Part shown: one piece after another, positions 11,837 to 64,000 of the stretch
How the letters are laid out: each line of letters begins with the position of its first letter
How positions within the stretch are numbered: position 1 is the stretch's first letter
Origin: Chitinophagales bacterium
GTDB taxonomy: Bacteria > Bacteroidota > Bacteroidia > Chitinophagales > CAVYQA01
Assembly (NCBI GenBank): GCA_963770495.1
Contig: CAVYQA010000015.1
Span: 43,914 to 107,913 of the forward strand
Direction of reading: 5' to 3'
Length of the DNA stretch: 64,000 bases
Made by a program: the position numbers and the translations under genes
Notes under the pieces: model-generated
Seen by the model: the letters and a program-made list of their open reading frames with translations, nothing else
Databases searched by the model: none
What the model was told of the DNA's origin: nothing

Positions 11837-14800
11837 ATGTTAAAATCACTACGCTTTTTTGCTGTTAGTCTATTGTTACTTGCGGCAAATGCTTTGCAAG
11901 CCCAAAATGTAGGCATAGGAACAGCCGCACCTGCCCAGAAATTGGAAATAGCGGGAACCAATAATACAATACGTATTAATGGACTTAAAACAGGGGGCAA
12001 TTATAATGGAACAGCCGCAACATCCTCCAACATTTTGTACGTAAATAATACAACAGGAGATGTGTATGCATTGCCGTCAGGCGGAGTTGGAGCGATACTT
12101 ACTATAAACGCTTCGGGTATTCCCACCTGGTCAACCGGAGCTACTTCGGCAACTGCCTGGCAGTTAACGGGTAATACAGGAATTGCTACTCCTGCTGCTC
12201 CGGCAACTTATGGAACATCAACCATTACTTCAGGTAAAAACTGGCTGGGCACTACGGATGGAAATGATGTAGTGTTTGGCACCGATAACATTGAACGGAT
12301 GCGTATAGGCGGCGGAACAGTAGCAACTGCCGGCGATGTAGGTATAGGCACATCTGCACCCGCTACAACATTACACGTTGTACAAATTGGTAATCACACC
12401 AGTGATTTCGGTACCTATAATGTAGCGGTTCAGATTGAAAATAAATCAGGTACAGAGCCGATACTTTATATCAATGGTTCAACAGCCAATAATCCTTTAG
12501 CCGGTATTATAGAACGTGCAAGTTCAACAGCATTTTATTCAGGGTTGAATAATAGTGCAAATTATAGAATAGCAGGTATAGCATCCATCACTTCGGGTGC
12601 CGTAACCACTGCTAAAGACGGTACTGCCGGTATAACCGTATTAGAATCCAATGGCAATGTGGGTCTTAATTATACAACACCTGCAAATGCATTAGATATA
12701 AGCGGTGCAGAAGCTATAGGTAGTTATGCCGGAACAGCCGCTCCTTCTAACGGATTAATTGTTTCGGGCAATGTCGGTATAGGCACCTCTTCACTATCAT
12801 CGGGTAGCACATTAAACGTGGTTCAAAATGGTAATGTAGCCAGTGATTTTGGCGGCTATAATACAGCGGTTGAGATTCAAAATACAGCAGGTACAGAACC
12901 TGTCCTTTATATCAATGGTTCAACAGCTAATAATCCCTTAGCAGGTATTGTGCAACGTGGCAGCTCAACAGCGTTTTATGAAGGGTTGAATAATAATGCA
13001 AATTTTAGAATAGCAGGAATAACAGCAATCTCTCAAACTGGTTTCGGCAATGCTAAAGACGGCAGTGCAGGAATAACAGTATTAGAATCCAATGGCAATG
13101 TAGGTATTGGAATAATAGCACCTGCCCAGGCACTGCAGGTTGTAGGTAGTGTTCAGTTTTCACAGGCATTAATGCCTAATGGGGCTGCCGGTACAGCGGG
13201 CAATGTTCTGCTATCAGGTGGAGCCGGTACATTCCCAACATGGCTTGCTAATGGCAGCGCCAATCAAGTTCTTACCATTAGTGGCGGCGTTCCCACATGG
13301 GTGACACCAACTGCTACATCAGCCACTGCATGGCAGTTAACAGGTAATGCAATTGCCTATACTTTTAGCGCCTCGCCTACAAACTATTTGGGTACTACCG
13401 CTTCAAACGGTGCAGGTTTTCAATTTGGAGTTGGCGGTGCTAATGCCGGTCGTGTAGAATCCACAAACGGAAATACTGCTTTAGGTTATCAGACTTTAAA
13501 TGCTACCACCGGCACTTATAACGTTGCTATGGGTTATCAAACTTCAAATAGTACTATAACAGGACAGTATAACACAGCGTTAGGGTATCAATCATATTTG
13601 GGACCGGGAACTACTTCGGGATCGTATAATATAGCGATTGGTTACCAGGCGCTCAATACGACAGTGTGGGGTACAAATGTCAATACAGCGTCTAATAATA
13701 TTGCTATTGGAAACCAATCATTAACAAGTATAACTACGTCACATGATGAAATAGGTATAGGAAATAGTGCCGGCGCTGCTATTATAACCGGTACTCAGAA
13801 TATAGCAATTGGCTATGCCGCAATGTATAATACCGGTGGAGGTGATAATAACAATACTGCTATTGGGTATTTAGCCTTAGAAGGGTTCGGAGCAAATGTA
13901 AATGACAATACAGCCATTGGCACTAATGCCTTACAGAATGGAGCATCAAGCGACAACGTAGCTATAGGATATAATTCTATGGAAGAAAACTTTCTTACCA
14001 GTGTAGGTTTTAATGTCGCTGTTGGTTCCGGAACACTTCAAGTAGGAAACACTGTTTCTAACTCTACGGCTATCGGGTATTATTCATTACATACTGCTAC
14101 CGCAGGTAACAATACCGCTGTCGGATATTCTTCATTATCCTCTAACCTGAGCGGCTCCAGTAACGTAGCTATGGGGTATGATGTTCTTTTATCAAACACT
14201 TCTGGCAGTAATAATACGGCATTAGGTTACCAGGCGGGTTACACGGCAACACCTGCTAACGCAAATGTCACAGGCAGTAATAATACTTTTATTGGTTATA
14301 ATGCAGGTCCCGGAACAGCCACACAGTTATCCAATGCGACAGCTCTTGGTAACGGCGCATTAGCTCCTATTAGCAATTCAATAACTCTAGGTAACTCTGC
14401 GGCTACAAGTCTTTATATACCGGGTTATCAAACAGCAGGCGCATTATTATATACCACAGCTGCAACCGGGCTTGTTGGATCGACCGGTGTTGGTACAAGC
14501 GGGCAGGTATTAGAATCAACAGGCGGAGGCGCTCCGACATGGACAACCTTAACTACATCAGCAACTGCATGGCAGCTAACAGGTAACGAGCGGAGTAACT
14601 TATGCAGCTAATTTTATAGGTACGGTAAGCGGCACTGACCAGGCACTTAAGTTTGAAGTAAACGGTTCAACAGCAGGGCGAATTGAGGATATAAATACAG
14701 GTAATAATGCTTACGGCAATACTTCATTAGGTTACCTGGCATTAAGTGTGCCGTCTACAGGATTCTCAAATGTAGCAATAGGTAAAGAAGCTCTTCGTAA

Positions 14801-17800
14801 CAATGCGGCTGACTATAATGTGGCAGTTGGCGATAGTGCGTTGGTTAGTAATACTACAGGTACCTATAACATAGGAATAGGAAATAATGCATTAGCAACA
14901 AACATATCAGGTTTATTGAATACTGCTGTCGGATATTATGCATTAAATGCCAATAACAGCGGTAGTTACAATACAGCACTCGGAAATAGTGCATTATTGG
15001 GGAATACTTCAGGTGGCGACAATGTTGCAGTAGGGTCGTTTGCATTATATTCAAACCAAACAGGTACTGCCAATGTCGCCATTGGATATGAAGCTTTGGA
15101 AGCCAGCACATCAACCAACCCCAGTACTGCCGTCGGTTATTTTGCTTTAGGTCATAATACAACAGGTGGTCTCAATACAGCGGTAGGATACGATGCTTTA
15201 GGTGTAGGAAACACAACAGGTGTTGACGATGATGCTTTCGGTTATTTTACGGGGGCAAGGAATAATGGCAACTATAATGTGGCGCTTGGCGATGCGGCTC
15301 TCCGCACTCCTACAGGCACTTCAAGTAACAACGTTGCTGTTGGGTACAGTGCCTTAACCGCTTCAAATGCAAGTGTTGGTAATAACACAGCCATAGGATA
15401 CGAATCTAGTTACAGCACTACAACCGGTTCAAACAATACAGCATTAGGCTACCAGTCATTATATACTAATGCCGCTTCCGCCTCAAACGTTGCAATAGGA
15501 GCTAATGCATTATATAATAATACCGTCAGCAAGAATACAGCAGTGGGCGATAGTGCACTTGCTTACAATTCAACCGGCACACTTAACACAGCTTTAGGTT
15601 ATAATGCCACTGTATCGGCAAATAATTTATCCAATGCAACAGCAATCGGCGCGAATGCAATAGCTCCTGTAAGCAACTCAGTAACATTAGGTAATTCGGC
15701 AGTTGCAAGCCTTTATTTGCCGGGATATACTTCAGCGGGTGCATTATTATATACTTCCGCTGCAAGCGGGCTTGTTCAATCAACAGGTGTTGGTACAAGC
15801 GGGCAGGTATTACAGTCAAATGGTACAGGCGTTCCCACATGGGTAACACCTGCTGCGGCATCGGCTACAGCTTGGGCTTTAACAGGTAATACAGGAACAA
15901 CTTACGGTACTAACTATATTGGCACTAATGATCTTCAAGGTTTAATGTTTAAAGTTGACGGCACAATAGCCGGGCGTATTGAAGAGTTAAAAGCCAGTCA
16001 GAATCTCAATGCCAATACGGCAATTGGTGATTCAGCATTAATATCCAACACCACAGGTGGATGGAATACAGCAGTAGGTTACCAGGCTTTAGGTGACAAT
16101 ACCCAGGGATACTATAATACAGGAATAGGATGGGGAGCAAATGCTTTAAACACAACGGGTTCTTCCAATACTGCAGTTGGACTCGACGCTTTATATTCAA
16201 ACAACACAGGCGGATACAATACAGCCCTTGGGTATGCTAGTATGGGGTTAAATACCACTGGTAATAACAATATTGCTATTGGAGCTTGGGCATTGGATGA
16301 TAACACCACAGGTTCTGGCAACATTGCCATTGGGTATGAAGCTTTGGTGGCAAACACCACAACTAATCCCAGTACTGCCATTGGTTACTTTGCTATAGGG
16401 CACAACACTACTGGCGGTCCCAATACCGCATTAGGTTATGAAGCTTTAGATCTGAATGTTACAGGTACTAACGAGGATGCTTTTGGTTACCTGGCAGGTT
16501 TTAGGAATACCGGCAGCTTTAATGTTGCGCTTGGAGATATGACTCTACGCACTCCTTCAGGCACTTCAAGTAACAACGTTGCTGTTGGTTACAGTGCTTT
16601 AACCGCTTCAAATGCCAGTGTTGGTAACAACACAGCCATAGGTTACGAATCCGGTTATACCACTTCAACCGGTTCAAACAATACCGCCTTAGGCTACCTG
16701 TCGTTATATACTAATACTATTCACGCCTCAAATGTAGCAATAGGAGCAAATGCGCTTTTAGATAACAACGTCAGTCAAAATACAGCAGTGGGTGATAGCG
16801 CTTTAGCAACTAACGTTAGCGGCACTGGTAATACAGCGTTGGGTTATCAGGCAGGAGCTGTTACAACCGGTTCTTTTAACCAATTTGAAGGGTACCAGGC
16901 GGGAAGTAATAATTCAACCGGCGCTAACAATACTTTTATCGGGTATAGCACAGGCACTACAAATACTACAGGCTCCAATAATACACTTTTGGGCAGTGCC
17001 GCCAACATAAATGCAGCCGGGTTAACTAATGCAACAGCAATAGGAGCAGGTGCTACAGCTCTTGCAACCAACTCAATAACGTTGGGCAATTCGGCAGTTT
17101 CAAACCTTTATTTGCCCGGATATCCTACTGTTGGAGAAATGTTCTATACCTCCAATGGAAACGGGCTTGTTTCACCTCTTAATATAGGGACAACCGGACA
17201 AGTATTGACAGTATCAGGCGGTGTTCCCACATGGGTAACACCCACTGCAACATCAGCTACTGCATGGCAGCTAACAGGTAATGCTGTTGCCTATTCTTTT
17301 AGTGCTACACCTGCTACCTATTTGGGTACTACCTCCGGAAACGGTGCGGGTTTTCAATTTGGAGTTGGCGGCAATAACGCCGGGCGTGTTGAATCCACTA
17401 ACGCAAATGCTGCATTGGGTTATCAGACATTAAATGCAAATATTACAGGTACCGGTAATGCAGCAATCGGTTATCAGGCATTACTTGCCAATACGACAGG
17501 CACGAACAATGTTTCTATGGGTTACCAGGCATTAAAAACAAGCACAACAGCTGCGTCAAATGTGGCAGTAGGTAAATTTGCGTTAGAACTTTCAACAGTT
17601 AGTCAAAACGTGGCAATAGGCGATAGCGCATTATCACTTAATACGTCAGGAGTTCGCAATACCGCAGTAGGTTACCAGGCGGGAACAAATAATACAACAG
17701 GTACTGATAACGTATCAATAGGGTGGGAAGCAGGTTATTATCCTGGTTCAACCAGTAATAACACAGCAATAGATAATATTGGTATCGGAACTTATGCAAT

Positions 17801-20800
17801 GTCAGGTTATGGTGGTTCATTCATTGGCACACCCGGTTCTCATAATATAGGTATTGGTGAAGAAGCAACGGATGATCTCTCAACAGGTAGTAATAACATT
17901 GGTATTGGTTATGAGTCTTTATTACTTGAAGCCACCGGAAGTTATAATATTGCTCTTGGAATTGGAGTAATGCTTCAGGATCAATCTTCCAGCAATAATA
18001 TAGGTATAGGTTATAACGTATTAGAGCAGGGTGGCGGTGGAGGAAATAACATTGCCATTGGAAACAACAGCATGGCACTTAACCTTAGTGGTAGTAATAG
18101 CGTGGCGATTGGTACAAATGCAATACAAAATGGAAATGGCTCTCTGGCTAACACTGCAGTAGGTTATCAGGCTTTACAAAATAATGGCAGTAACTGGGCA
18201 CCGGGGGCTGATGGTGATTATAATGTAGCTGTAGGTTATGACGCATTATTGAATGCACATGGAGCAGCTCAAAACGTTGCTGTTGGTTATAACGCTGCTA
18301 TAAATACAAATAGCTTTACAGTTAATGGCAGTGCTGTGAATAACGTTGCAATTGGTTATAATGCTTTTAGCACTAATACTACTGGTAGCAATAACGTAGC
18401 AATTGGTTCCAATGCCAATGTAGCTTCTGCTGCGTTAACCAATGCAACAGTAATAGGCTACAATGCCACAGCGCCTGTAAGCAATTCAGTAACTTTGGGT
18501 AGTTCAGCAGCTACGAGTTTATATATACCAGGATATAATACGGCAGGTGCTTTATTATACACTTCAGCAGGAACCGGGTTGGTAGCATCAACGGGAGTTG
18601 GCACAAGCGGACAGGTATTAGAATCAACAGGTGGAGGCGCTCCAACATGGACAACCCTAACAACATCAGCTACTGCATGGCAATTAACAGGTAATTCAGG
18701 AACAACACCCGGTACTAATTTTATAGGCACTACCGATGCCAAAGCGCTTGAATTTAAAGTGGATGGAAAACAAGCAGGGTGGATTGACTATAACGGTAAC
18801 GAGAATACCTATTTTGGCTACCAGGCAGGTAATTTATCCGCCAGCGGCGGCAATGTCGCTATCGGATACGATGCGCTTCTCAGCTCCGGCGGAACTTCAA
18901 ATATCGGCATCGGAAATTCGACTCTTATTTTTAACACCAGCGGCAGCAACAATATCGCTATCGGCGGCGGTGTGCTTAATAACAACTCCTCCGGGTCTCA
19001 AAATGTGGGCGTCGGAGCAGGTACACTCTTTAATACCGGCAGCGGCTCTTACAATACCGCTGTTGGAGGTAATGCACTTAATGGCAGCGGCGGATCGTAC
19101 AACACCGCCCTTGGATTCAATGCCATGTCGCAGAACGGACCAAGTTTTAGCACTGCTATTGGAAATGAAGCAGGAGCCAATAACTCCGGTAACCAGAATG
19201 TGTTTGTAGGCGACAGTGCAGGGTATAATAATATTAATGCATCAGGAATAACCTTTGTGGGGTTTGCAGCAGGAACAAACAACTCGAGTGGAACAAATAA
19301 CACTGCCCTTGGGTATAATACTCTTAACACTAATTCAAGCGGAAGTAACATTACCGCTTTAGGTTATGGCGCCAACGTAAGTTCAGACGGCTTAACCAAT
19401 GCAACGATAATAGGCGCTAATGCAACAGCGATTGCAAGTAACTCAATAACATTAGGTAATTCTGCAGCTACAAGCCTTTATATACCCGGTTACCAAACAG
19501 CGGGTGCATTATTATATACTTCAGCTGCAACCGGACTGGTTGCATCGACTACAGCCGGTACAAGCGGGCAGGTATTAGAATCAACCGGCGGCGGTGCACC
19601 AACATGGACAACCCTAACCACATCAGCCACTGCATGGCAGCTCACCGGCAACGCGGTTGCCTATAGCCCTAGTGCTTCACCTACTAACTATTTGGGTACA
19701 ACTATTTCCGGTGGTACTGGTTTTCAATTTGGAGTTAGCGGCAGTAATGCTGGCCGAATTGAGGGTGGCGCTACTCTTAATACCGCACTGGGTTATTTGT
19801 CATTAAATCCCAGCACCACAGGCACTAAAAATTCGGCTTTAGGAGCCAGGTCCTTAAATGCTAATACCACCGGTTCTGAAAACTCGGCTGTTGGTAATGG
19901 TTCATTAACTTCCAACACTTCCGGCAGCAACAATTCGGCTTTAGGATTTGCCGCTTTGGCTGATAATACTTCGGGATCTTCTAATACAGGCATAGGTGTT
20001 GATGCGTTAAACAATAATACCTTGGGCGGTAACAATGCAGCTTTAGGATATGAGGCGTTAACCGCTAACACCACCGGCAATAATAATGTTGCAGTTGGTG
20101 TTCAGGCAATGTATAGCAATACCACCGGCGCCAGTAACGTAGCTGTTGGACAAAATGCCTTATATTCCGATATCGTTCCTTCTTCTAACGGCAGTCAAAA
20201 TACAGCCATTGGTACTTATTCATTATATGGTGCCATAAGCGGTGCTGCACGGAATACAGCTGTCGGAGATTCAGCTTTGGTCAGTAACACGACCGGCGCA
20301 CAAAATACGGCTTTAGGTTACAATGCCAATGTAAGTTCAGGCGCTTTAACCAATGCCACAGCTATAGGCGCAAATGCATCTGTTGCACAAAGCAACTCTT
20401 TAATTTTGGGTTCAATAAACGGAGTAAACGGTGCGACAGCCAATACCAGTGTCGGTATTGGTACAAATACACCTAACAGCACTCTGCATGTCAATGGCTC
20501 AATGTCTGTTGCTGTAACTAATATTACTCCCGCTCTATCTCCTTATTCAGCAGGTTCGGGTGATTATATTGTTGAAGGCGATTGCAGCACCGGCAATATT
20601 ACAATAAATCTTCCCGATGCCACTACTATGAAGGGCAGGATATATTATATCGTCCGTTACGATGCAACCTTTAATTCGGCTAATACACTTACTGTAGGTA
20701 CTACAAATAACACCTCCAGTCAGAATAATATTGGTCCCTATGGCGCGTCTATCTCACTTTCTGACGAATATGAACAGGAGTATATTGCAAGTGACGGAAA

Positions 20801-20837
20801 TAACTGGCTTATTCTTGGCAGCAGTAAAATGCAATAA
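11837..20837 (+). CDS. Giant (about 2,999 aa) secreted beta-roll / tail-fibre-like repeat protein 1
   Basis: Track ORFs 11837-14611 and 14748-20837 join into one frame when one base at 14588 is removed (TGN-SGVTYAANFIGT, as in the sister repeat TGNSGTTPGTNFIGT). Sec signal then QNVGIGT; dozens of about 14-aa NxAxGxxAL repeats; seven AW(Q/A)LTGN linkers; C-terminal TINLPDA...GRIYYI...SDGNNW domain. Confidence 0.85.
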
Positions 20838-21227: not shown

Positions 21228-22597
21228 AACTATAATAGAGCCATTTCGCATTAAGTCTGTTGAGCCATTGCAGATGAGTACGGAGGAACAACGAATAAAG
21301 TTTTTATCAGATGCTCATTACAATCCGTTTCTTCTAAAAAGCGAAGAGGTGATTATTGATTTGCTTACCGACAGACGGCACATCAGCCATGAGTACTAAC
21401 CAGTGGGCTGCTATGATGCAAGGTGATGAATCTTATGCAGGCGCCAAAAGCTGGAAACGGTTTGAAAAGGCGGTTTATGAATTTACCGGTATGCCTTATA
21501 TATTACCTACCCACCAGGGACGTGCGGCAGAGCGCATTCTTTACAGTCACCTGGGCGGGAAAGGGAAATATTTTATAAGTAATACCCATTTCGATACAAC
21601 ACGGGCGAATATTGAATACAGCGGGGCAACAGCCATTGATATACCGGTAAGCGCTGCATACGATTTTTCATCCGATTACCCGTTTAAAGGCGACCTCGAT
21701 GTCATTCAACTCGAGCAACTTATTAAAAAATTGGATGCCAAAAATATTGCCGGTGTCATTCTCACGGTTACCAACAACAGTGGCGGGGGGCAACCTGCAA
21801 GTATGCGCAATGCCCGCGAAGTTGCCGCCATGTGCAAACTGCATGGTATTCGATTTATAATTGATGCGTGTCGTATTGCGGAGAATGGCTATTTTATTCA
21901 TTTGCGTGAAGAGGGCTATGTCGATAAAACCATTAAGCAAATTGTGTTTGAGATGTTTTCACTGGCTGATGCCTGTATTATGAGCGCCAAGAAAGATGCG
22001 TTGGTTAATATGGGTGGCTTTTTGGCGTTGCGCGATAAAAAAACAGCCGATGCCTGCATTCAACTCTTAATTATAACAGAAGGGTATACAACCTATGGAG
22101 GTCTTTCTGGTCGTGATATGGAAGCCATTGCTGTGGGATTAAGTGAAGGACAGGACATGGATTATTTACATTATCGTATAAAAAGTACACAATATCTTGG
22201 TGAAAATATAAGACGCAAAGGGATTCCCATTATTTACCCGGTGGGTGGTCACGCTGTTTATGTAGATGCCAAAGCTCTTTATCCGCACATACCTGTCGAG
22301 CAATATCCCGGGCAGGCTTTGGTTTGCGAATTATATCGCATTGGCGGAATACGATGTGTGGAGATTGGTTCGGTAATGTTCGGCAAATATGATGGTAATG
22401 GAAAACTCATTCCGGCGCCGATGGAATTGGTACGGCTGGCTATCCCCCGCCGCACCTACACCCAAAGCCATATAGATTACGTGGTCGAGGTTTTTGACGA
22501 GATAATTAAAACCAAACATAATACAACAGGGCTGCGGATTATCCGGGAACCTGAATTCCTTCGTCATTTTACAGCACATTTTGAGAAAAATGTTTAG
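21217..22597 (+). CDS. tnaA: Tryptophanase (one apparent +1 indel at 21375)
   Basis: EPFRIKSVE start; removing A21375 restores DLLTDSGTSAMS; THQGRAAE; PLP lysine in SAKKD. FDTT and LRHFTA residues match tryptophanase rather than tyrosine phenol-lyase (FTTT, LRFFTA). 459 aa when joined. Confidence 0.9.
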
Positions 22598-42287: not shown

Positions 42288-42951
42288 TTACATTTCATCA
42301 GGATTAAAATAATTAAATACAACACCAGCCAGTGCACCGCCAATAACAGGAACCTACCAAATATATCCAAAGGTGTTCCAATGTGCCGCCACCCCATAGT
42401 GCATTGGTAAAAGTAATTCCTACGCCAACAGCCGGATTAAAGGCGCCGCCACTTGAAATAGGGGCTCCGGGAATAGAGCTTCCAACCATAGAGACTCCGG
42501 CGAACGCTGCTGCTAATAGGGTAAAACCAATAGCAAGTCCGTAATAACTGTTTCCCTGCGTTTTTGAATTGGTGGTTACATTAAGCACCACGTAAGCAAG
42601 GGCAAAAGTAAAAATTACTTCTGATAGAGTTGCCTGAAAGCTGGTACGTCCAGCTGGTGTAATAGCCGGGGCGCTGCCTGAAAGATGATAAGCCACAAAA
42701 CCTGCTACACAACCGGCAACTATTTGCACTATCCAGTAAATAACTGCTTGCTTTAATTCGATTTTGCGACGGTACAATACAGCCAATGTAACAGCAGGAT
42801 TAAAATGTGCACCGGAAACAGAGCTGCCCGCATATACCATCACCATAAGTATACTGCCAATAGCTATTGGACCCAACGGATTTCCCGCAGTTAAAGACAC
42901 AACAAACACCCAGAAAAAAGTGCCGGTAAACTCTGTATAGTATTTTTTCAT
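42288..42951 (-). CDS. MIP-family aquaporin (one +1 indel near 42351)
   Basis: EFTGTF, SGAHFNPAVT, AFNPAV, WIYLVG. Removing one base restores GPVIGGALAGVVFNY...EM*. Start taken as MKKYYTEF. Confidence 0.9.
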
Positions 42952-43062
42952 AACCAATTTTTTTTTAAAGATAGAACATTTTTTTAAAAATAATTTTTTA
43001 CATGACTTTGTAAACACAGGAATGTTATTTTTGTACGTTTTTTAATTTAAAAAATACCGTTT

Positions 43063-44635: not shown

Positions 44636-45580
44636 ATGCCGGTTAAAAAATATACTGCCTTTCTTATTATCGTTTTCATGTCATTGAAAGCCGGAGCCCA
44701 ATACTCTATTCCCGATTCCGGTTTCGAAAATTGGACCAATTCAATCAGCAATAGTCAATCATTTCAATATCCTACGGGCTGGTTAACACCCGATTCAATT
44801 ACCCTGACAAATGGAGGTATTGCGGAAGTCACCCTGTCCACTGATGCTTACTCGGGTAGTTATGCGGCACAGTTGGAAACGCAGTCGTTATATGGAAATG
44901 CTATTCCGGGTTTTCTTCTTCTTGGACAGTTTAATTTAGTTCAAAAAAACATCACCGGTGGAGTTCCATTTATGATTTCTGATTATACCCGCCCCGATAG
45001 TTTAACCGGCTATTATAAATATACACCACCTTCGGGGAAAAGTGATAGTTGTTTAATTTATATAGTGCTTATGCATTATAATGACACACTTAAAAAGCGC
45101 GATACGGTGGGCATCGGTTCATTTGGTGATAGCGTCACAACAAAAGGGTATACCAGGTTTGCTTTTGGTATAAATTATAACCTTACTTATCATTCTGAAC
45201 AAATTGATACTATTCAGTTAGGTATTTTTTCTTCAGGTAATTTTCTTACAGCACAGTTTGGAAGTACTATGCTTGTTGATGATCTTTCTTTTGATACTAC
45301 AGTGGTGACGGGTATTAGAAGTGTTGTATATAAAAGCTATAGTATATCCTGTTATCCTAATCCGGCAAATAGCTATCTTAATATTCTCATAAGTGAACCA
45401 CACACGGGAATGATTATTAAGGTGTATGATGTGCCAGGCAGAAATTTATTATCGGCAAATAACCGGGGGCTTATTACGCCTGTTGATGTCAGCAATCTGT
45501 CCAACGGCACTTATTTCTTTGAAGTGATTGACAGGTATGGAAACTTACTCAAGACGGAAAAGTTCTCTATTTTGAGATAG
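44636..45580 (+). CDS. T9SS-secreted protein, tandem paralog of 43602-44513
   Basis: Same layout (PDSGFENW, AYSGSYAAQLET, GGVPF...RPDSL.GYYKY) and a closely similar CTD. Confidence 0.8.
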   Translation: MPVKKYTAFLIIVFMSLKAGAQYSIPDSGFENWTNSISNSQSFQYPTGWLTPDSITLTNGGIAEVTLSTDAYSGSYAAQLETQSLYGNAIPGFLLLGQFNLVQKNITGGVPFMISDYTRPDSLTGYYKYTPPSGKSDSCLIYIVLMHYNDTLKKRDTVGIGSFGDSVTTKGYTRFAFGINYNLTYHSEQIDTIQLGIFSSGNFLTAQFGSTMLVDDLSFDTTVVTGIRSVVYKSYSISCYPNPANSYLNILISEPHTGMIIKVYDVPGRNLLSANNRGLITPVDVSNLSNGTYFFEVIDRYGNLLKTEKFSILR

Positions 45581-48500
45581 GTTTTTGTTTTTTCTTATTA
45601 GCGCGATGGAATATTTCGCCGAATCTGTTAAATTCCTTTCTGAATGAAATGCCTACGCCGTTAACATTTATATTCTCCTGGGCAATATCGTCGTATTGAT
45701 TTTTACGGAATGCTTTCAGGGTATACCTTCCATCGGGGGTAAGAAGATAATCAAGGTCAAAATCCCCGGCAATGTTGGTGGAAGAATTTTGTGATGTTGG
45801 TGCTGAATTAACGTCAACATTACCGCCCACCGTCACCGTTAAACGATTATTTAAAAGCCGTCTGTTTTACTTCTGCCATAAACTCTTTTCCGTTTGTAGC
45901 ATTGACCTGATTATTAGCTCCGGGAACACTGGATAAGGTATAATAATTAATATTCACGTTTGTCGTATTATTGATGGATGAAATAATACTGCTAAGCTGG
46001 CTGGTAAAAAACTCGCTCAGGCTTGTTGTGATAGCAGAAGTGCCGATTGATGTTAAAGAAGAGCTTTGTTCGGGTATAAAAGCGTTTATTAAAAGAAGAG
46101 AAACTACCTGTTTATTCAGTTCGTTTTGATCTTCTCTTATTTGTTGCAGGCGGCTTAATGCCAGGTCGGAGAATGTGGACGACTGGTTAGGTACCGTAAT
46201 GTCAAAATTAATAGCCGGCGTAAGCAGAGAGCCTGTGAGATTCATAACAACATTAACAGGAACAGTTTGGTTTGTGGTTTGCTGTTCAGTGCTTTGCCCC
46301 GTTGAAGTCAAACTGGATAAACTTGCTTGTACTGTATAAATAGCACTGATGTTAATACGCGCTTTGTAAGGATCACCGCTCCAACTGATAGTGCCGCCCT
46401 TGTCAAGCGTAAAAGGTTTATGGACGATATTCTGATACGTGAATAGATAAGACCCGCTTTCAATAGTGTACGTGCCATACATGTTAAATGAACCTGCCGT
46501 ATTTATTTTTATTTGCAGGTTACCATTGCCATTGCCTTTAATTATATCGCCTGTCGTTTGATCAAGAATGATGTTGATTAATGCATCAGGTGTAACGTCA
46601 AGGTCAAAATTAAATTTCAAACTACCGTTATTAAGCAACGCTTCTCCGGCGTTTTTAGATGATGTATCGGCAGTAATGAATTTGATAAAACTTCTGTCGG
46701 TTATATTTTGCCCGCCGCTTATGGGTATTGAGATGACTGTATTTTTTTCACTCTTTACTTCCGCATCAATTTCAAGATCATTTAAAGGTCCCCGGAACAG
46801 AACAGTGCCCGAGCCAAATGCTTTTCCGTAAAACAAATCGTTATCCCTTTGTGTGGTATTTAGTACAAGAAAATTCTTCGTATTCAAATATAAGTTGAGG
46901 CGGAATTCCGTAAGATGGTCATGAATTATTTCTCCCCCAAGCGTTGCCGTGTTTTTATACGTATCATAAAGGGTCACATCATGAAAGCTGATAAGGTTAT
47001 TTGTAAAGTCTACAGTTTCATTATAGAATTTATAATGTGTTTTAAGATAATCAATAGTTGCTTCCGCTGCCGGGATAGCAACCTTGCCGGTGAGTTGAGG
47101 TTTACTAATAGTGCCTGTGAGTTTTAGTATTCCATTACAATCCCCTTTTATACCCGATGCCAATCCAACGAGGAATGGTGATGCAAATGCCAGTTTCACT
47201 TTGTTTAAATTGATAGTGGCATTTAACCCGCTATCGGCATATAAATTATAGTCCCCCACCATCTCCGCGTCGCTGCTGTCTCTTTTAAGGCTAAAATTAA
47301 AATCCACCTGTTGTTGTGTAGTATCTAAATTCATATCGGCAACAAGCTCCCCCAAACTATCGGTATTCAGCCGCGCATCATTAATAGTAAGATTAGACGT
47401 TACGTGCGTCCGTTGTAATGGATTAATAACTGCCAGTTTCCCGTTTAGAGTTCCATAAACAGAATAATCATGAATTTTAAGTAAGTTATAGAAGTCTTCA
47501 ATTTTTACGTTAGTGAATGTTGCCGTTATTGTATTAGCCGTACTTGTTTTAACTCCCGAAAATGCTATCTGCCCGTTCTGTCCATTCAATAGTAAATTGT
47601 TAACGAGAATATGATTTTGAATATAAGTGATGCAGTTGTTGTCAGGTATCACCCATGCCGTGTTATTCAAGTGAAAATTGGATTTAAAAAATGAGAATTT
47701 CATTGAATCCAGGTTTCCTATCAGCCAACCGTTAAGGTTAAGCCGGTTGGCGGAAGTGCTGTCTGCAGCTTCCAGGTAGCAAAGAGCGCTGTCATTGCGA
47801 ACAGCAAAACTCGCAGCAACATCCTGTATACCTGTACTATCGCTCAACTGGATATTTTTTGTATCGACTGTCACTTTTAAACGATTATGATTAGCAACAG
47901 AAACACCTAAATCAACAGATTGAAACTTAAAGTTTTTGTAATCAATTTGGGGAAATGAGCCTGTCAGGGTAATAGAATTATCAGAAGTATTCAAAGAGCC
48001 CGACGCATATGAACCGGTTAGCCCTGTAAAATCGGGGAAGAAGAAATTGGTGAATGGAATAACATTTTTTGCTGTAAAAGTGAATTTCATATCCTGTTTT
48101 GCAGGTTGCCCTTCGGCAGTAAACGGCAGTGAAGGAAAATAATACTTCATCATATCCACAAATGAATCGTAAAAACCATCCAAATAAAAATTGCCTGCCA
48201 GCGTTGCATCCAAAACATCTGACTTTACAGTAACAGTTTTTTCCCCAACGAATGTCGATGAATTTACATGAATAGAATCTATCTCATAATTTTTATCGGC
48301 TAATGTAAATTTGGTATGCTCTATGTTTATATTACCAATCATATTGTCTAGATCATTGCCCGAAAGATTCAGATTCATCGTAGAATTAAGCACAAAATCC
48401 TTATTAGCAAAATGGATGTTTTGTAAATGCGCATCCGTAACGTCGGCAATAAAATTTAATTTGGGTGTCGTATCATTAAAATCAACATTGCCCGAAAAAT

Positions 48501-50260
48501 CAAGATTTAGATTTTTATCATTGACATAAAGTTTGCCATCGAATTTTTTCCGGTCAAAGTGACCAAAAACAATCATGTCATGGTAGTTGTAATGATTAAA
48601 AACAAATTGTGAAATGCCAGAATTCATCTGTGCACTTACATTATCGGCGCGCAGCCCGTCTGCCGTTAATATCCGCATTTAATGTAATGGTGCCAAGCAG
48701 AGAATCATTGCCAAAAAATTTTCCCAGGTTAAAATTATCTGCAGAAAAATTGCCCGAATAGAAGGCATGATTTTGTTTGTTAACTTTAAAATTTATATCA
48801 GTAGTAATGCTCCCTATAGCGGTATTGAACGTACCATAAGCTACAAAGTCGTTGATAAAGCCCGTATAATTGCCGGTGAAATTTACCTGTCCCAGTGTGT
48901 TAATATTGTCAGGAATTTTAATGCGGGGCATTAATATTTTCAGGTCGTTGGAAGTGGCGGCAAGCTGCCTTATATCAATGGTAGCAAAAGTCTCGTCTAT
49001 ATCAGGCAATCCCCTTAATTCCACATCACCGTAAAAGATGCCATTTGTGCCAAATTGCAGCTTCAAATCTTTGCCATGAAGGTCATTTACCGGTCCGGTT
49101 ATTTCCCCATCGGCTAACAGGGTTTTACTGATAGCATCTTTTACATCGGGTGCAAAACAGGCGATATCCTCAAATGAGATTTTACAATTTTTCAAATTGC
49201 CTTTCATGCGGACTTCTGCGGGGTATTCTGTAAATGCACGGAAATCGTGAAAATTCATTTGAAAATAATCTTTTATTTCACTGTTAGTCGTTTCTATGAG
49301 AAGATGATTAAGCGTGATTTGTTTAGGAGTAATCTTCGTATCTGCTACAAGATGCTTAACTGCAAACCCGCTGCGTTCCATGGCAGAAAAATCTTTGAAT
49401 TGTCCTTTAATAGTGTCCTTAATGAATGTACCATTTTCAATGTCCATATTCAATGAAGAAACAACTATGTGAGATGGATCGAACTTACCTTTTGCCGGCT
49501 TAAACGTATCCGTGTTCATGGTAAAAGAGCAATTTGTCAGCATGAATTTTTTGCAGATGAGTTTAAACGCTTTTGTGTTTAAATGTACAATGCTTGTATC
49601 GTGAGTTGCAGGGGTGGAAGGATATAGATAGGAGTAATCTGTAAATGCCACATCCGCTTTATCTATCGTAGCATTTTTCAGGTCAAATAACGGAACAGAT
49701 AAATCCACTTTTCTGAAATTGAAAATACCATGTTTCAAATTCACTTTTACTTCGTTGGCAGAATTTTCATCGCGCAATACAAATTTTATATTATTCATTT
49801 CAAAATCATCAATAGAAAATTGATACTTAGAACCGCCCTTTTCGGTAGTGGTATCTTTTGAGGCAAAGGCATTAATAATGAATTGAAAATTGAAATCGGA
49901 ATCAGTATGCGCTCTGTAAAGCTTAACGGTTGCATCATCCAATTCGGTAAATTTTAGCTGCAAGTGTTTGCCAAAAAAAGAGAATAAACTGATATTGGCT
50001 TGCAAACGACCTAATGATAACAGCGTATCATGCCGCTGGTCTTCAACGTAAATGTTTTTTATATCGGCGGTTTTGAAAAATTTTATATCCACTGAACCGA
50101 CGTCCACCTTTGTATGCAGTTTATTCGATAAAACCCCCGCCACTCTTTGAACGATATAAGTTTGGACACTGGGAATCCGTACCAGCACTGTAACGAGAAA
50201 AGACAGTGCAAGTAAAATGGCAATGGTTATCAGCGAAATTTTAATTATTTTTTTTACCAT
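45567..50260 (-). CDS. tamB: Translocation/assembly module TamB-like protein (about 1,563 aa, two +1 indels)
   Basis: N-terminal anchor VRIPSVQT; C-terminal DUF490-type GTISWSGDPYKA, GDFDLDYLLTPDGRYTLKAF and GVGISFRKEFN. Three track ORFs join by removing T48659 and T45861. Confidence 0.85.
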
Positions 50261-52897: not shown

Positions 52898-53044
52898 AAC
52901 CTTGAATTTTAGATTAGTTGGTTTCGCGTTTGATACGTCAAATATCATTAATTTGTTTCAAATAGCAATTAAAAATTATTAACCATATAAGGTTACTAAT
53001 CCTTTAATAAACAAGTAAGTTTGCAAGCATACATCATTTTTAGT

Positions 53045-53933
53045 ATGACTTATGGCGAATTGCACCGGTTTATGATTAAGCAACTCTGCAAAATTTATTC
53101 TGTCGGGGAAGCGAAAAGCATTGCCCGCCTTGTGTTTGAAGACGTTTTGAAGCTTAATTCAATAGATTTTTTCCTGGAAGCGAAGAAAGAAGTTACTCCT
53201 GCAAACCAAGCCCGGCTTGAACAAATTGTAAAGCGCCTTTTACAACATGAACCGGTTCAATATATAACCGGCACTGCCGGTTTTTATGGATTGAAATTTA
53301 AAGTTAATCCCCATGTTTTAATTCCGCGTCCTGAAACGGAAGAATTAGTGAAATGGATACTTTCAGATATAAAAAATAATCCCTATACCAAAAAGCCAGC
53401 CATTCTTGACATTGGCACTGGCAGCGGCGGTATAGCCATTGTATTAAAGAAAAATTGTGCTGATGCAGCTCGTTTTTGCCATGGATATAAGCGAAGAGGC
53501 ATTAACAGTTGCGCGCCAAAATGCGGTAATGAACAGGGCGGAAGTGAATTTTTTTGCGGGAGATATTCTTACTTATAAACCTGCGCCAAACCTGCGTTGC
53601 GATATAATTGTCAGCAATCCGCCCTATATCAAAAAAAGTGAACAACACGAAATGCCGCTTAATGTAGTGAATTATGAACCCCATTCAGCGCTGTTTGTGG
53701 AAGATAATGATGCGCTGGTATTTTATAAAGCTATCTGTGGTTTTGCCGCCGCTACGCTCACTGACGCAGGGCTTCTTTATTTTGAGATTAATGAATCACT
53801 TGGCGCAGAAGTAAAGCAATTACTCACGGAATCGGCTTTCGGGGATATTATTATCCGGAAAGATATAAATGGCAAAGAGCGAATGGTACGTTGTTCCGCT
53901 CCGGTCACTCCTGCTCCTTCTGGAAATCAATAG
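53045..53933 (+). CDS. prmC: Release factor glutamine methyltransferase (one +1 indel at 53471)
   Basis: EPVQYITG, VLIPRPETEELV, LDIGTGSGGI, IIVSNPPY. Removing C53471 joins the two track ORFs (DAAVFAMDIS). Confidence 0.93.
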
Positions 53934-59260: not shown

Positions 59261-59482
59261 ATGATGAACAAAAAGAATATATTAATTGCATTTGGTGAAA
59301 AGGTTCGTGAACTGCGAAAGCAAAAAGGCTTATCGCAAGAGGAACTCTCATTCAAGGCCGACTTACATAGAACTTATATTGGGATGATTGAACGAGCTGA
59401 AAAAAATATTACTCTAACGAACATAGAAAAAATTGCTAATGCATTAGATGTTCACGTTTCAGAACTTCTAAAAAGTAAATGA
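59261..59482 (+). CDS. R-M controller (C) protein, XRE-type HTH
   Basis: FGEKVRELRKQKGLSQEELSFKADLHRTYIGMIERAEKNITL; ATGA overlap with the endonuclease gene; palindromic operators upstream. Confidence 0.88.
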   Translation: MMNKKNILIAFGEKVRELRKQKGLSQEELSFKADLHRTYIGMIERAEKNITLTNIEKIANALDVHVSELLKSK

Positions 59483-60468
59483 CTATGTTACAGACACAAA
59501 GAATGCCATCACTTCCAAAACTTTTAGAGCGAAAAATATATAAGACTGGACAAACAAGAGGAGCTGATGATGATGTGATTTTTCAGAACAGGGTTGCAAG
59601 AAACAGTACAGTACTAATTCCCTACCCCCAGTTTGAAGTTTGGAAACAGGCTCCTGATAATAACGGTATTTATGAAAACAATTTTTTAGTTCTTATTAAG
59701 CCGGAAGATTATTTTAATAACAAAAATATTAAGGAAGAGTTAGTTGAGAAAGGGTTAAGGATTGGAAAGAATGTCTTGTTGTTTTATGAAACGCGTGAGC
59801 AATGGAACGATTTCAACCCAAATAATAAGAGGCTCAAATATGCTGTTTCAAGAACTTCACCACTAAAAGGACATTATGTTGCCCGAGTACCTTCGACTAC
59901 AGCAGAAGGGGATAGAAAAATTCTAAGAGGTTTTACAACGAGCGGAATGAAAGGAGCCGGAATACGAGTTTATGAATACGCAAGCCAGAGTATTAACGAT
60001 CAATGCCGAATACAACTTGAATACGTCTTTTGGTGCTGTGTTGATGCAAAAGAAGTTGTTGAACAACAGGGAATGACAAAAGAAAATATTGAAATAAGAA
60101 AAAAAACTAATATAGAAAAAGCAAAAGAACTAAAACTCGATGATGAAAAAATTCTAAAACATGTTCGGATTTTAAGCGAATTTGGCCATGCAATTTGCCC
60201 GCTTTGCTTAAAACCTTTGTCAGCAAATGGTTTTTTCAATCGCTTAGAACAAGCTGAAGGAAGGGATGTACCTGACCTGACAGTAACCCAATTGAATTTA
60301 TTTCACATCCAGGAATTAAGAATGGGGGAGTTCAATCATCGTCCATATAATTTGGGTTGGGGACACCATCATTGTAATACTGTTACTAAGGATTCAGGAA
60401 TAATTGAAACCTTAAAATGGATGGACGAAATAATTCAGACTAACAAAAAAATGGGTTACAAGTTTTAA
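59479..60468 (+). CDS. Type II restriction endonuclease, HNH-type (BstXI-like by recollection)
   Basis: RKIYKTGQTRG...QNRVARNSTVLIPY N-terminus; CPLC and LFHIQEL...HRPYNLGWGHHHCN beta-beta-alpha-metal motif; between a C gene and a methyltransferase. The family name is unverified. Confidence 0.75.
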   Translation: MTMLQTQRMPSLPKLLERKIYKTGQTRGADDDVIFQNRVARNSTVLIPYPQFEVWKQAPDNNGIYENNFLVLIKPEDYFNNKNIKEELVEKGLRIGKNVLLFYETREQWNDFNPNNKRLKYAVSRTSPLKGHYVARVPSTTAEGDRKILRGFTTSGMKGAGIRVYEYASQSINDQCRIQLEYVFWCCVDAKEVVEQQGMTKENIEIRKKTNIEKAKELKLDDEKILKHVRILSEFGHAICPLCLKPLSANGFFNRLEQAEGRDVPDLTVTQLNLFHIQELRMGEFNHRPYNLGWGHHHCNTVTKDSGIIETLKWMDEIIQTNKKMGYKF

Positions 60469-61583
60469 CCCAGATCAAAGAGTGTATTTGATAGAGAAGT
60501 CATTTGTTTTTTTGTCACTTTCATTATATCGTGCTTTTTCTTTAGTGTTGTAAAGTTTTTAGCAGAATAGTTTTCCAATCTTGTTTTTATTGACTTTACC
60601 CATTTTTCGTCCAATTCAATAGAAATTGTTTTTCTGCCAGTATTCAAAGCAGCAATTGCTGTACTTCCAGAACCAGCAAAACAATCAAGAATGATATCGC
60701 CTTCATAAGTTGCGCTTATAATTGAGTGCTCCAACATATCTATAGGCTTTTCAGCAGGATGTTTTCCATCATAAGGTCTTACGGAACAGAAATTCCAAAC
60801 ATCAGTAAACTCAACAGATGAATTAACATCAAACGGCCTTATTACATCTTCATAAGACGGCATTTGTTTTACTAAGCCTATCGACAAAATCGCTTTACAA
60901 ATTTTTTTGTATTGATCACGACTCGGTATATTTCTACCTGCCTCCCAATTATGGACAGAACCACCATGATTCACTTTTCCGAAAGCACCTACCATTTCAG
61001 TAAGTTGATGACCGGCCAAACCAGAAGCCAATCTAACAGACTTTAAAAAATTACCAAATGATGAATTATTTAAGTTCCCTTTATATGCTGGTTCAGCAAA
61101 AATGATTCTTTCAGAATGGTCATACCATTGTCGTAATGATTCTTTTTTCATTTTTTGTTTCCATCCATCAAAACCAGGATCATTTGGTTTTGTCCAAACA
61201 ATATGGGACAGAATATTAAATTGCTTCATAAGCAACACTTCAATTCTCGCCGCCATTGCCGAGGAACAATAAACATAAATTGACCCATTTGGCTGTAGGA
61301 TACGATACCATTCTTTTGTAAAGTCTTCCATCCACATTAAAAAATCATCATCACTTTCAAAAGCTGTATCGTTCTTAATGTTTTTCTTTTTAGTTGTGTG
61401 GTAAGGAGGATCTGTAAGAATAAGAGAAATACTATGATCTGGAATGTATTTTAGTAATTCCAAAGAATCTCCAGAAATGAGTAATGAATCTGAACTTTCA
61501 AACTCTAACTCACCATTGAATTTTGACCTAATTTTTTTGAATGAAGCTTCTCTATTTTTCAAATATTCATCTAAAGTTGTCAT
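60465..61583 (-). CDS. Beta-class N6-A/N4-C DNA methyltransferase with internal HTH-like insert
   Basis: Motif IV TDPPY precedes HPAEKP and motif I DCFAGSGST; convergent with the endonuclease (4-nt overlap). Confidence 0.92.
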   Translation of the reverse strand: MTTLDEYLKNREASFKKIRSKFNGELEFESSDSLLISGDSLELLKYIPDHSISLILTDPPYHTTKKKNIKNDTAFESDDDFLMWMEDFTKEWYRILQPNGSIYVYCSSAMAARIEVLLMKQFNILSHIVWTKPNDPGFDGWKQKMKKESLRQWYDHSERIIFAEPAYKGNLNNSSFGNFLKSVRLASGLAGHQLTEMVGAFGKVNHGGSVHNWEAGRNIPSRDQYKKICKAILSIGLVKQMPSYEDVIRPFDVNSSVEFTDVWNFCSVRPYDGKHPAEKPIDMLEHSIISATYEGDIILDCFAGSGSTAIAALNTGRKTISIELDEKWVKSIKTRLENYSAKNFTTLKKKHDIMKVTKKQMTSLSNTLFDLG

Positions 61584-61590
61584 TTTTCAC

Positions 61591-62437: not shown

Positions 62438-62474
62438 TTATTGTCTTATATCGTTCTTTGAAATTTATTTATTT

Positions 62475-62595: not shown

Positions 62596-62604
62596 GTTTA
62601 ATTT

Positions 62605-63469: not shown

Positions 63470-63517
63470 AAAATTTTAGCCGAATTTTCGACAAGTTCTG
63501 ACAAGTTTCACCGGAGG

Positions 63518-64000
63518 TCAGGGTATAACAATTGTTTTAGATGTCACACCGTAAGCGCTAAAATAACCTAAAGCGCCGTTGCTGATATTAGAAGTGGGAT
63601 TTGCGGGCGCAGTATTAAATCCTTCACCATTTGCATTGATGAGTGTGCTATAATAATTGAACATGTTCTCATCAATGTTTTCCAATAGAATAGTAACAGA
63701 GTCTCCTGCTTTAAGGCTGTCACGCGAGATTCTTAAGGGGAAAATGATTGTTTGCCCGTCCTGTAATTCATCATTGGTTACAAAAATCCGGGATTGTTGA
63801 ATGTGATTTATAAGCTCAACAAAATGATAATAATTAGCAATGCCTGCGGGGTCTTTAAATTGTACATTTATCACGGTATCTCTTCCAAAAGGTCCCTTTC
63901 CCAAGAGTAAGTGTATCAATATTAACAGGAGATGACATGGTAGAAGTTGCCGAATAGTTTTTTCCGTTGGCTGTAATTGAGAGTGTATATGTTCTGCCCG
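63518..64000 (-). CDS. DUF4249-like protein, N-terminus beyond the window (one +1 indel near 63896)
   Basis: GRTYTLSITANGKNYSA upstream joins FKDPAGIANYY...PANPTSNISNGALGYFSAY after removing one base. Confidence 0.8.
   Translation of the reverse strand, partial: RAEHIHSQLQPTEKTIRQLLPCHLLLILIHLLLGKGPFGRDTVINVQFKDPAGIANYYHFVELINHIQQSRIFVTNDELQDGQTIIFPLRISRDSLKAGDSVTILLENIDENMFNYYSTLINANGEGFNTAPANPTSNISNGALGYFSAYGVTSKTIVIP

Follow-up and report, generated by a model that had tools for sequence, protein, structure and literature searches.

One-base insertions at CAGCKG and GGWCC split genes in the assembly of an uncultured Chitinophagales-like bacterium, most likely through base modification

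The window analyzed here, a 64,000-nucleotide stretch of DNA, contains many genes whose reading frames are broken by one or two bases. Are these genes decayed, or is the assembled sequence wrong? The initial annotation listed 17 indels, noted that most of them cluster on two short motifs, and ascribed them to modified cytosines. The source assembly (32 contigs, approximately 4 Mb; 4.05-Mb genome tested) represents a 97%-complete, uncultured Chitinophagales-like bacterium and was presumably built from native-DNA long reads. The lineage is a family-level novel member of the Bacteroidota and is without close sequenced relatives. Twenty relatives were compared; all belong to the same order at best, and none was usable as a DNA-level reference.

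Frame breaks in the window

Sixteen of the 17 indels were found within a few bases of their proposed positions, while at about 8820 the removal of a base adds only 5 residues. The overlapping ORF pairs at 367-383, 3860-3896 and 5046-5116 were also considered as frameshifts but were rejected, as they are genuine neighbouring genes.

Four events have the identical form CAG[A]CGG (affected base in brackets), as initially described. The extra A 21375 (21372-21378, plus strand) is located in a gene for a tryptophanase-like beta-eliminating lyase. Upon its removal, the sequence LLTDSGTSAM was regained and the Pfam Beta_elim_lyase match reached profile position 1, with an increase from 238 to 246 bits. 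The extra A 34506 (34503-34509, plus strand) is among the genome-wide fix sites described below; here the frame switches between 34480 and 34509, and the sister alignment reads CAG-CAGG. The remaining two, 45861 (45858-45864) and 48659 (48656-48662), have the motif on the gene strand (minus) and share a TamB/AsmA-like gene. Both edits together gave a single ORF of 1563-1572 codons, in which the TamB domain covers 8-381/381 (232 bits) instead of 8-325 (196 bits).

Another recurrent class, C[G]AGCKG, is represented by events 14588 and 53471. The extra base 14588 in C[G]AGCGG (14587-14593, plus strand) cuts a giant ORF of approximately 3008 codons into 11837-14611 and 14748-20837. The junction interval spans just 14580-14608, and paralogue HSPs switch frame at 14587-14610. 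Event 53471 (53466-53472, plus strand) is CAGCT[C]G, equivalent to C[G]AGCTG on the opposite strand, and is located in prmC; a neighbouring T5 run is an alternative indel site. After the edit, the merged protein contains ...GTGSGGIAIVLKKNCADAAVFAMDISEEAL...NPPY and its MTS domain is continuous at 106-200.

Most breaks on the plus strand fall in the giant gene 31192-41542, which contains sister repeats. Alignment of these repeats at the DNA level fixed four events to the exact base, namely 33993, 36764, 36812 and 38369. At 33993 (33990-33995), a 97%-identical sister copy (38814-38993) shows a single gap at the extra C, which precedes CAGCGA; this confirmed the earlier description of the site as a near miss of the motif. 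At 36764 (36758-36767), an extra G lies in CAGCGG[G]TCC, where CAGCGG and GGTCC overlap, and four sisters read CAGCGG-TCC. The resulting +1 shift is offset 48 bp downstream by a compensating -1 event at 36812 (36809-36813), where the A of GG[A]CC is missing: three sisters have GAGGACC, and the window has GAGG-CC. At 38369 (38366-38371), the G of CA[G]CGG is missing, according to sisters at 91% and 84% identity (AACAGCGGGCG).

The other breaks in this gene were placed as follows. A -1 break with one base missing was located at 32715-32721, since the tblastn HSPs switch frame at 32715/32721; the DNA sisters read AACGGCAGG or AACACCGGG, and thus the site is ambiguous between CA[G]CGG and CA[C]CGG. 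The +1 break in 33103-33152 is due to a surplus G (CAGCAGG[G]AGC). Two sister copies align as GCAGCAGG-AGC and GCAGCA-GGAGC, and since sister copies read CAGCAGG-AGC, the extra base at 33128 belongs to a G-run and not to a CAGCGG site. At 37853-37859, two extra bases in TATT[CC]GGA break the frame; there is no motif, and the event is unexplained, as previously stated. Finally, a +1 break adjoining CAGCTG (41427-41432) deprives the giant protein of its Gly-rich C-terminus. The frame switch must fall within 41418-41432, between the open frames ...AGNNGGTNSWCRW* and ...TAGAGGSGAANLG...IIIITEYK*.

Two further events on the minus strand had been assigned to GGWCC along with 36812. One of them affects GG[A]ACC (gene strand, GG[T]TCC; 42349-42354) in the part of a MIP aquaporin gene that encodes the C-terminus. 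Deletion of one base from this site (42351) restored the conserved MIP sequence YLVGPVIGG (YLVGPVIGGALAG), and the Pfam MIP match was extended from position 210 to 222/222 (87 to 99.8 bits). The other is a +1 break within GGGAAAGGGACCTTTTGG (63880-63905) in a DUF4249 gene. Merging yielded a domain at 4-268/269 with 118 bits, compared to 49 bits before. In this sequence, GGACC at 63896 is just one among several candidate sites. The assignment to GGWCC is borne out by sister copies at 36812 and by the restored MIP sequence at 42351. Of the 11 events attributed to CAGCGG or CAGCTG, 33128 has to be removed, while 32718 is ambiguous and 53471 has the T5 run as an alternative. Three of 16 window events (33128, 33993 and 37853) are off both motifs.

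Motif enrichment at frame junctions across the genome

Under a loose match rule, a junction interval of 30-100 bp in the motif-rich giant gene matches a motif by chance in 36-94% of cases, so that such matches in this gene alone prove little. Outside the giant gene, the chance match is 10-28% for +1 events. The question of clustering was settled by genome-wide tests. In a de novo k-mer test, 587 +1 junction intervals were compared with their local flanks, and a GC filter was applied. This background replaced the whole genome because the latter was swamped by a chimeric tail of contig C1 with 66-78% GC. The top k-mer was CAGACGG, which occurred 36 times in the junctions and 28 times in the flanks, although the latter are 12.7-fold larger (16-fold enrichment, p=1.6e-24). 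Furthermore, CGAGCGG (17 versus 22 in flanks, 9.6-fold) and CAGACTG (16 versus 26, 7.7-fold) were enriched in +1 junctions. Once CAGCKG-type k-mers were masked, the top hexamer was GGAACC (25 versus 117, 2.9-fold, p=1e-5). The proposed clustering of indels on CAGCKG and GGWCC is therefore far above chance.

In a second test, the named base was deleted, the fusions of two long ORFs were counted, and the resulting fix rate was compared with that of control motifs. CAG[A]CGG was fixed at 36/230 sites (15.7%), compared to 45/3862 (1.2%) for single-substitution controls (p=1e-24). For CAG[A]CTG, the rate was 16/156 (10.3%) versus 1.4%, and for C[G]AGCGG it was 16/200 (8%) versus 0.8%. For GG[A]ACC, we counted 29/1102 versus 208/21667 (0.96%) in the controls. 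Three independent positional scans revealed the same requirement for six positions, of which only position 5 is degenerate (G or T, i.e., K). In line with the de novo enrichment, the errors thus recur genome-wide at a short specific sequence motif.

Wider or different motifs were rejected. CCGCGG gave no error signal genome-wide, and the fix rate of CCG[A]CGG was 1.4%; CMGCKG, with which the first motif had initially been called compatible, is thus not supported as the true motif. A general AGCT motif is incompatible with the fix rates of CAG[A]CTH (0-1.8%) and DAG[A]CTG (0-4%). RGGWCCY (PpuMI/EcoO109I-like) was discarded in favor of GGWCC, as the flanks of the error sites have no R...Y preference. 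Only insertion (+1) classes recur: the deletion forms CACGG and GGCC were not enriched genome-wide, and CCCGGG in -1 intervals (3.4-fold) was not significant after multiple testing. Homopolymers were not enriched genome-wide, or 1.2-1.4-fold only for A-runs. Intact CAGCTG was 2.9-fold enriched in +1 intervals, and among the palindromic hexamers of the genome only three are more strongly depleted (observed/expected for CAGCTG, 0.45). The high-GC tail of C1 was also analyzed by GC3 phase shifts as an other-organism control, but random positions there already shift often and motif sites are too few.

Origin of the errors

We consider it most likely, with a probability of roughly 80%, that the one-base consensus errors at CAGCKG and GGWCC arise from base modification that disturbs the long-read signal. 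In this bacterium, both motifs probably carry a chemical modification, and modification is the likely cause of the errors. Methylation by restriction-modification enzymes would disturb the signal, and the basecaller or polisher would then write an extra base. The dominant error is a base inserted inside CAGCKG, stereotyped as CAG[A]CKG or as C[G]AGCKG; the weaker one is a doubling of the central base of GGWCC to GG[A]ACC, with rare deletions at both motifs. The errors affect about 3-6% of the CAGCKG and about 1% of the GGWCC sites, and false splits concern on the order of 100 genes genome-wide, with at least 13 events within the motif-rich window. Listed as candidate error sites were roughly 107 CAGCKG variants and 29 GGAACC sites. 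Counting against modification, only a few percent of the motif sites are affected, and 130 of 231 CAGACGG sites are clearly native.

The low proportion of affected CAGCKG sites (3-6%) would also suit a context-specific basecaller or polisher error without base modification, in which the signal of CAGCKG and GGWCC is mis-resolved in some wider contexts, and so would the preference of affected CAGCGG sites for R before and S after the motif. Nevertheless, we regard this explanation as unlikely. The two insertion forms depend on the same six positions, only one of which is degenerate; such a determinant resembles an enzyme recognition site and not pore k-mer confusion. AGCT in general is spared, and the literature links motif-bound consensus errors to methylation (PMC6591954).

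It is very improbable that the insertions are real mutations, be it true pseudogenes or one-base scars left by self-restriction at blunt CMG^CKG/CAG^CTG sites and imprecise rejoining. PvuII and NspBII/MspA1I-type enzymes cut CAG^CKG, and the commonest inserted base coincides with this cut position, but neither the C[G]AGCKG class nor GG[A]ACC coincides with a blunt cut position. Moreover, this reading would require that secA, prmC, tamB, the RND pump gene and some 100 further genes are all inactivated in one 97%-complete genome. One-base edits restored the genes for SecA, AcrB, TamB, PrmC, tryptophanase, aquaporin and the DUF4249 protein. After the edit, SecA_SW was continuous across the junction (1-198/200), and ACR_tran covered 5-1020/1021. 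Indeed, the closest SecA relative, a short-read-style ENA contig (k141_...) with 82% DNA identity, lacks the extra base: the sole gap in 297 bp is exactly the extra A in secA.

Programmed recoding at the CGG of CAGACGG, be it four-base decoding or a +1 shift of the ribosome, has a negligible chance and was rejected. CGG does follow the extra base at several sites. However, the motif is on the template strand at 8/36 CAGACGG and 8/16 CAGACTG sites, and coding-strand CAGACGG is spread over the three codon phases (4/12/12). In addition, CAG[A]CTG lacks a CGG, and four-base decoding in the tryptophanase gene would put R at the conserved S of TDSGT.

Since the motif is bound neither to one strand nor to one codon phase, we take the artefact to be one of the DNA level and the genes to be intact, as judged from their sequence. 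This agrees with the initial proposal, as do the continuous Pfam domains after one-base edits and the contig of the relative. We conclude that the broken genes of the window are almost certainly sequencing-consensus errors. A motif-bound consensus error is a known long-read artefact and nothing biologically new, but it has consequences for the use of this assembly. The falsely split genes include secA, prmC, tamB, an RND pump gene, those of many giant surface proteins and one methyltransferase gene. Claims of pseudogenes, gene decay, programmed frameshifts or novel short ORFs must first exclude CAGCKG and GGWCC sites. At the same time, the assembly predicts, at little cost and in testable form, that two motifs are modified in an uncultured lineage, and other metagenome-assembled genomes from long reads can be screened for such artefacts by the reference-free combination of frame-junction k-mer enrichment and positional scan.

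Candidate enzymes and comparison with known systems

The genome harbors at least 15 DNA methyltransferase genes, several of them paired with nucleases. The initial annotation suggested the beta-class enzyme of the window as the CAGCTG methylase, by analogy with M.PvuII. This N6_N4 DNA methyltransferase (60465-61583, minus strand; Pfam N6_N4_Mtase, E=1.6e-40) shows the beta-class order with motif IV before motif I (DPPY at residue 59, FAGSG at residue 303). It has DPPY in place of the N4-cytosine-type SPP[YF] motif IV, and DPPY is typical of N6-adenine enzymes. Its best PDB matches are 9c3u/8urk and CcrM, whereas M.PvuII matches only partially (99 residues, E=1e-14). Its partner, encoded by the convergent neighbouring gene (59479-60468, plus strand), is a type II restriction endonuclease of the BstXI family (Pfam RE_BstXI, E=1.1e-86; PADLOC REase_II, E=2.4e-125), not of the PvuII family. 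Because of the DPPY motif and the BstXI-type nuclease alongside, the enzyme is a poor candidate for CAGCTG and is likely not the CAGCKG enzyme, so that the suggestion is not upheld. A search of the genome for a PvuII-family nuclease (PF09225) gave no match, with the control for the search likewise silent.

The genome's best M.PvuII-like enzyme is an SPPY methylase on contig C20 (10763-11653; PDB 1boo, E=1.2e-31), the gene of which adjoins that of an EcoO109I-family endonuclease (RE_EcoO109I, E=3.7e-89). This nuclease is distant from EcoO109I itself (PDB, E=7e-5) and does not match AvaII. The EcoO109I family has GGNCC-core targets. Based on this family-level association and on the error motif, the N4-cytosine-type SPPY methylase is the best candidate for GGWCC modification. 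GGWCC need therefore not carry m5C, initially described as the usual modification of this motif, while the call for a separate enzyme is matched by a plausible candidate pair.

No methyltransferase of the genome could be linked to CAGCKG. The enzyme might be an SPPY methylase encoded on C30 (289619-290827), a DruM-like m5C methylase on C2 (261867-263066), or one of four or five type IIG-like enzymes, with genes on C1, C2 and C30; PDB searches with the nuclease-like neighbours on C2 and C30 gave no matches. That the error shadow reflects a truly unusual modification, either a CAGCKG specificity sparing CCGCGG or a bulkier non-methyl group, we consider doubtful. Known enzymes recognize the palindromic CMGCKG, from which such a specificity would depart, and a bulkier modification would account for insertions rather than mismatches. 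The enzyme would then come from one of the unassigned systems, be it the SPPY methylase on C30 and the 812-aa orphan next to it, the DruM/DruK cluster of Druantia-like type, or a type IIG protein.

PvuII recognizes CAGCTG and its methylase forms m4C, and NspBII/MspA1I recognize CMGCKG. The error motif resembles these targets in that CAGCTG and CAGCGG/CCGCTG make up three of the four CMGCKG sequences and in that CAGCTG is strongly avoided in this genome. It differs in that CCGCGG has no error signal and in that the M.PvuII-like methylase is paired with an EcoO109I-family nuclease. AvaII/SinI recognize GGWCC, and EcoO109I recognizes RGGNCCY. The combination on C20 of an EcoO109I-family nuclease and an SPPY methylase, together with the error motif GGWCC, is reminiscent of both systems. 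Unlike for EcoO109I, the error-site flanks have no R...Y preference, and GGWCC recognition by the distant C20 nuclease is only predicted. AvaII is related to EcoO109I (PMC7337904).

In Oxford Nanopore (ONT) consensus sequences, about 70% of the errors were located in Dcm motifs (CCWGG) (PMC6591954). The errors described here are likewise systematic, persist in the consensus, gather on a short, putatively methylated motif and make up the larger part of all errors, as in that work by Wick et al. (2019). In contrast to that work, CAGCKG and GGWCC are affected, one-base insertions that break genes predominate, and methylation is inferred. Lineage-specific modified motifs lower ONT genome quality, and published modification-mediated errors are mostly mismatches, not insertions (PMC10687267). 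The Listeria errors at GCWGC/GCTGG reported by Chiou et al. (2023; PMC10687267) are mismatches, verified by whole-genome amplification and Illumina sequencing, whereas the indels described here were checked only against conserved proteins, against sister repeats and against the contig of one relative. In both cases, the errors fall on a conserved motif that can be read from the error positions.

Frame breaks and the genes they split

Frame breaks were located with an ORF map and a stop-to-stop junction scan of the window, and split genes were named via Pfam. Both scans recovered the breaks listed in the initial annotation, but the one at about 8820 was not confirmed. By Pfam, a TamB/AsmA-like gene on the minus strand (45567-50260) is broken into three parts and prmC (53021-53933) into two. 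A tryptophanase-like lyase (21356-22597) has lost its N-terminus, a MIP aquaporin (42313-43017) ends in an incorrect C-terminus, and a DUF4249 gene (from 63518 onward) is split. Two giant ORF systems had no Pfam match: with frames joined, they span about 3000 codons (11837-20837) and about 3400 codons (31192-41542; here giant gene 2). Giant gene 2 has 52% GC versus 40% for the genome, carries internal repeats that are 55-97% identical, and encodes a protein with a Gly-rich C-terminus ending ...GANGIIIITEYK.

The paralogous repeats of giant gene 2 switch frame at 32715-32721, 33103-33152, 33990-33995, 34480-34509, 37853-37859 and 38350-38371. DNA alignment with sister copies placed a missing G at 38369 (CA[G]CGG; brackets mark the missing or extra base), an extra G at 36764 (CAGCGG[G]TCC), a missing A at 36812 (GG[A]CC) and an extra C at 33993, just before CAGCGA. 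The break at 33128, previously assigned to CAGCGG, aligned instead as CAGCAGG[G]AGC, where one G is extra, and 37853-37859 holds two extra bases within the palindrome TTCCGGAA, on neither CAGCKG nor GGWCC. The event at 32718 was ambiguous in these alignments, and the break near 41426 was confined to 41418-41432, beside CAGCTG.

One-base removal restored SecA (...EYDDVMNAQRDVIY..., with a continuous SecA_SW domain), an AcrB-type pump (ACR_tran 5-1020/1021), TamB (8-381/381), DUF4249 (4-268/269), PrmC as a recognisable protein, the tryptophanase motif LLTDSGTSAM and the aquaporin sequence YLVGPVIGG. The nearest SecA relative, on an ENA metagenome contig named k141_..., is 82% identical in DNA and 88% identical in protein over the region searched; in the 297-bp alignment, the sole gap falls precisely on the extra A. 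The proteins recognisable after single-base removal and the relative's contig lacking the extra A support the proposal that the genes are intact. Since a cell could not live with secA broken, we conclude that the frame breaks are almost certainly errors in the sequence record.

Motif association across the genome

On the window alone, the case for a motif association is weaker than its appearance suggests, because loose-rule chance matches are frequent in the motif-rich giant gene 2. There, CAGCGG occurs once per ~430 bp, and a 30-100 bp junction interval matches by chance in 36-94% of cases if a motif in or beside it after restoring is counted; outside giant gene 2, the same rule gives 10-28% (+1, or extra-base, events). 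Because of this high chance matching, the whole genome was tested without using the motif hypothesis.

The assembly (4.05 Mb, 32 contigs, ~40% GC; window at C15:43914-107913) is the sole member of its family among the genomes compared, and its SecA neighbours point to a Chitinophagales-like Bacteroidota bacterium. Genome-wide, 1497 same-strand ORF pairs overlapping in different frames were collected, of which 1181 were left after removal of ≥58% GC regions and intervals >300 bp. The k-mers in junction intervals were compared with those in 400-bp local flanks. One block of ~66 kb at 66-78% GC (C1:337000-402990) abuts 33-40% GC DNA directly at ~C1:336-337 kb; it is almost certainly an assembly chimera or contamination, and it had swamped a first k-mer test.

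In the 587 +1 intervals, CAGACGG/CCGTCTG was the top 7-mer of all (36 versus 28 in flanks, 16-fold, p=1.6e-24), with CGAGCGG (17 versus 22, 9.6-fold) and CAGACTG (16 versus 26, 7.7-fold) next. Once the 75 variant-holding +1 intervals were masked, GGAACC/GGTTCC became the top hexamer (25 versus 117, 2.9-fold, p=1e-5 over 1981 tests). The signal in the -1 (missing-base) intervals came down to real gene overlaps of the ATGA type and a slight surplus of A-runs; CACGG and GGCC were not enriched there, and CCCGGG (8 versus 40, 3.4-fold, p=0.0045) was not significant after correction.

In an ORF-fusion test, the suspect base was removed from each occurrence of a k-mer in the genome, and fusion of two long ORFs was scored against pooled single-substitution k-mers. 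Fusion occurred at 36/230 copies of CAG[A]CGG (15.7%; control, 1.2%), 16/156 of CAG[A]CTG (10.3%; 1.4%), 16/200 of C[G]AGCGG (8.0%; 0.8%), 5/125 of C[G]AGCTG (4.0%, without its own control scan) and 29/1102 of GG[A]ACC (2.6%; 0.96%), the last corresponding to ~18 events above background. The 231 CAGACGG sites comprised 36 strict fusions, 16 weaker fusions and 130 clearly native sites; the four CAGCKG variants summed to 74 strict and 33 weak events. Three separate positional scans agreed that all six CAGCGG positions are needed and that only position 5 takes T, perhaps weakly C (4.6%). CCGCGG and general AGCT were unaffected in these scans, and GGWCC error sites showed no R...Y flank preference. 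Thus, both tests confirmed the clustering of indels on the motifs and extended it genome-wide.

Candidate methyltransferases

The initial annotation named the window's beta-class methylase (60465-61583, minus strand) as a candidate for CAGCKG. Its class agrees, but its motif IV is DPPY, M.PvuII is a partial, weaker PDB match, and the gene facing it at 59479-60468 encodes an endonuclease of the BstXI family (Pfam E=1e-86). Given DPPY and this partner, the assignment is unsupported; most simply, the enzyme would be the methylase of a BstXI-like system. Together, the genes form a complete convergent restriction-modification pair (59479-61583), in which the methylase carries an HTH-like insert. 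No CCAN6TGG depletion was found (712 genome sites, like other spacings).

None of the at least 15 methyltransferase genes in the genome can be linked to CAGCKG, and a PvuII-family nuclease was not detected in a genome search whose control was silent. For GGWCC, an SPPY methylase on C20 (10763-11653; top PDB match M.PvuII, E=1e-31) adjoins an EcoO109I-family nuclease (E=4e-89). Nucleases of this family target GGNCC cores, and AvaII (GGWCC) is related to the family (PMC7337904), which makes the pair a good candidate. A separate enzyme for GGWCC had been anticipated, but as an m5C methylase; with an SPPY motif, the modification would probably be N4-methylcytosine.

Further SPPY methylases lie on C25, beside an XcyI-family (CCCGGG-type) nuclease, and on C30, with an uncharacterised 812-aa neighbour. 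C6 carries a CcrM-like enzyme, and C12 an N6_N4 DNA methyltransferase with a DPPF motif (137856-138777), split by GG[A]ACC at C12:138195 and adjoining a PLD-family nuclease gene. The m5C methylases on C2 and C24 are both within defence-like clusters: a DruM-like enzyme with a DruK-like PD-(D/E)XK nuclease (C2:257949-263066; PADLOC E=6.5e-156 and 7.7e-24), and a DrmMII-like enzyme (C24:14917-19591) whose 733-aa GHKL-ATPase neighbour is weakly similar to BbrUII/HgiDII restriction enzymes, with phage-like genes alongside. Two enzymes of type I and another four or five resembling type IIG are also present.

Origin of the errors

In nanopore sequencing of native DNA, motif-bound errors that survive consensus are the hallmark of base modification. 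The specificity resembles that of a recognition site (six positions, one degenerate, common to two insertion forms), which fits this picture. CAGCTG fits it too, being strongly avoided (O/E 0.45, the fourth lowest among palindromic hexamers). Avoidance was also very strong genome-wide for GGCC (O/E 0.11), CTAG (0.15), GCATGC (0.23) and GATC (0.32). We consider an artefact caused by base modification to have a probability of roughly 0.8. The previously proposed methylome shadow is the best explanation of the cluster, but the modification itself we infer, short of proof, because only a few percent of sites are affected and published modification-linked errors are mostly mismatches (PMC10687267).

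An artefact arising without base modification is unlikely, set against the recognition-site-like specificity. Real mutation or recoding, taken together, is at most a few percent likely; the motif occupies each of the three codon phases and lies on coding as well as template strands, which rules out a translational signal.

The artefact is valuable as a warning to anyone annotating the genome and because it yields a methylome prediction that can be tested. This kind of technical artefact is already known: Wick et al. found ~70% of consensus errors within Dcm motifs (PMC6591954), and Chiou et al. described lineage-specific modified motifs in Listeria (PMC10687267).
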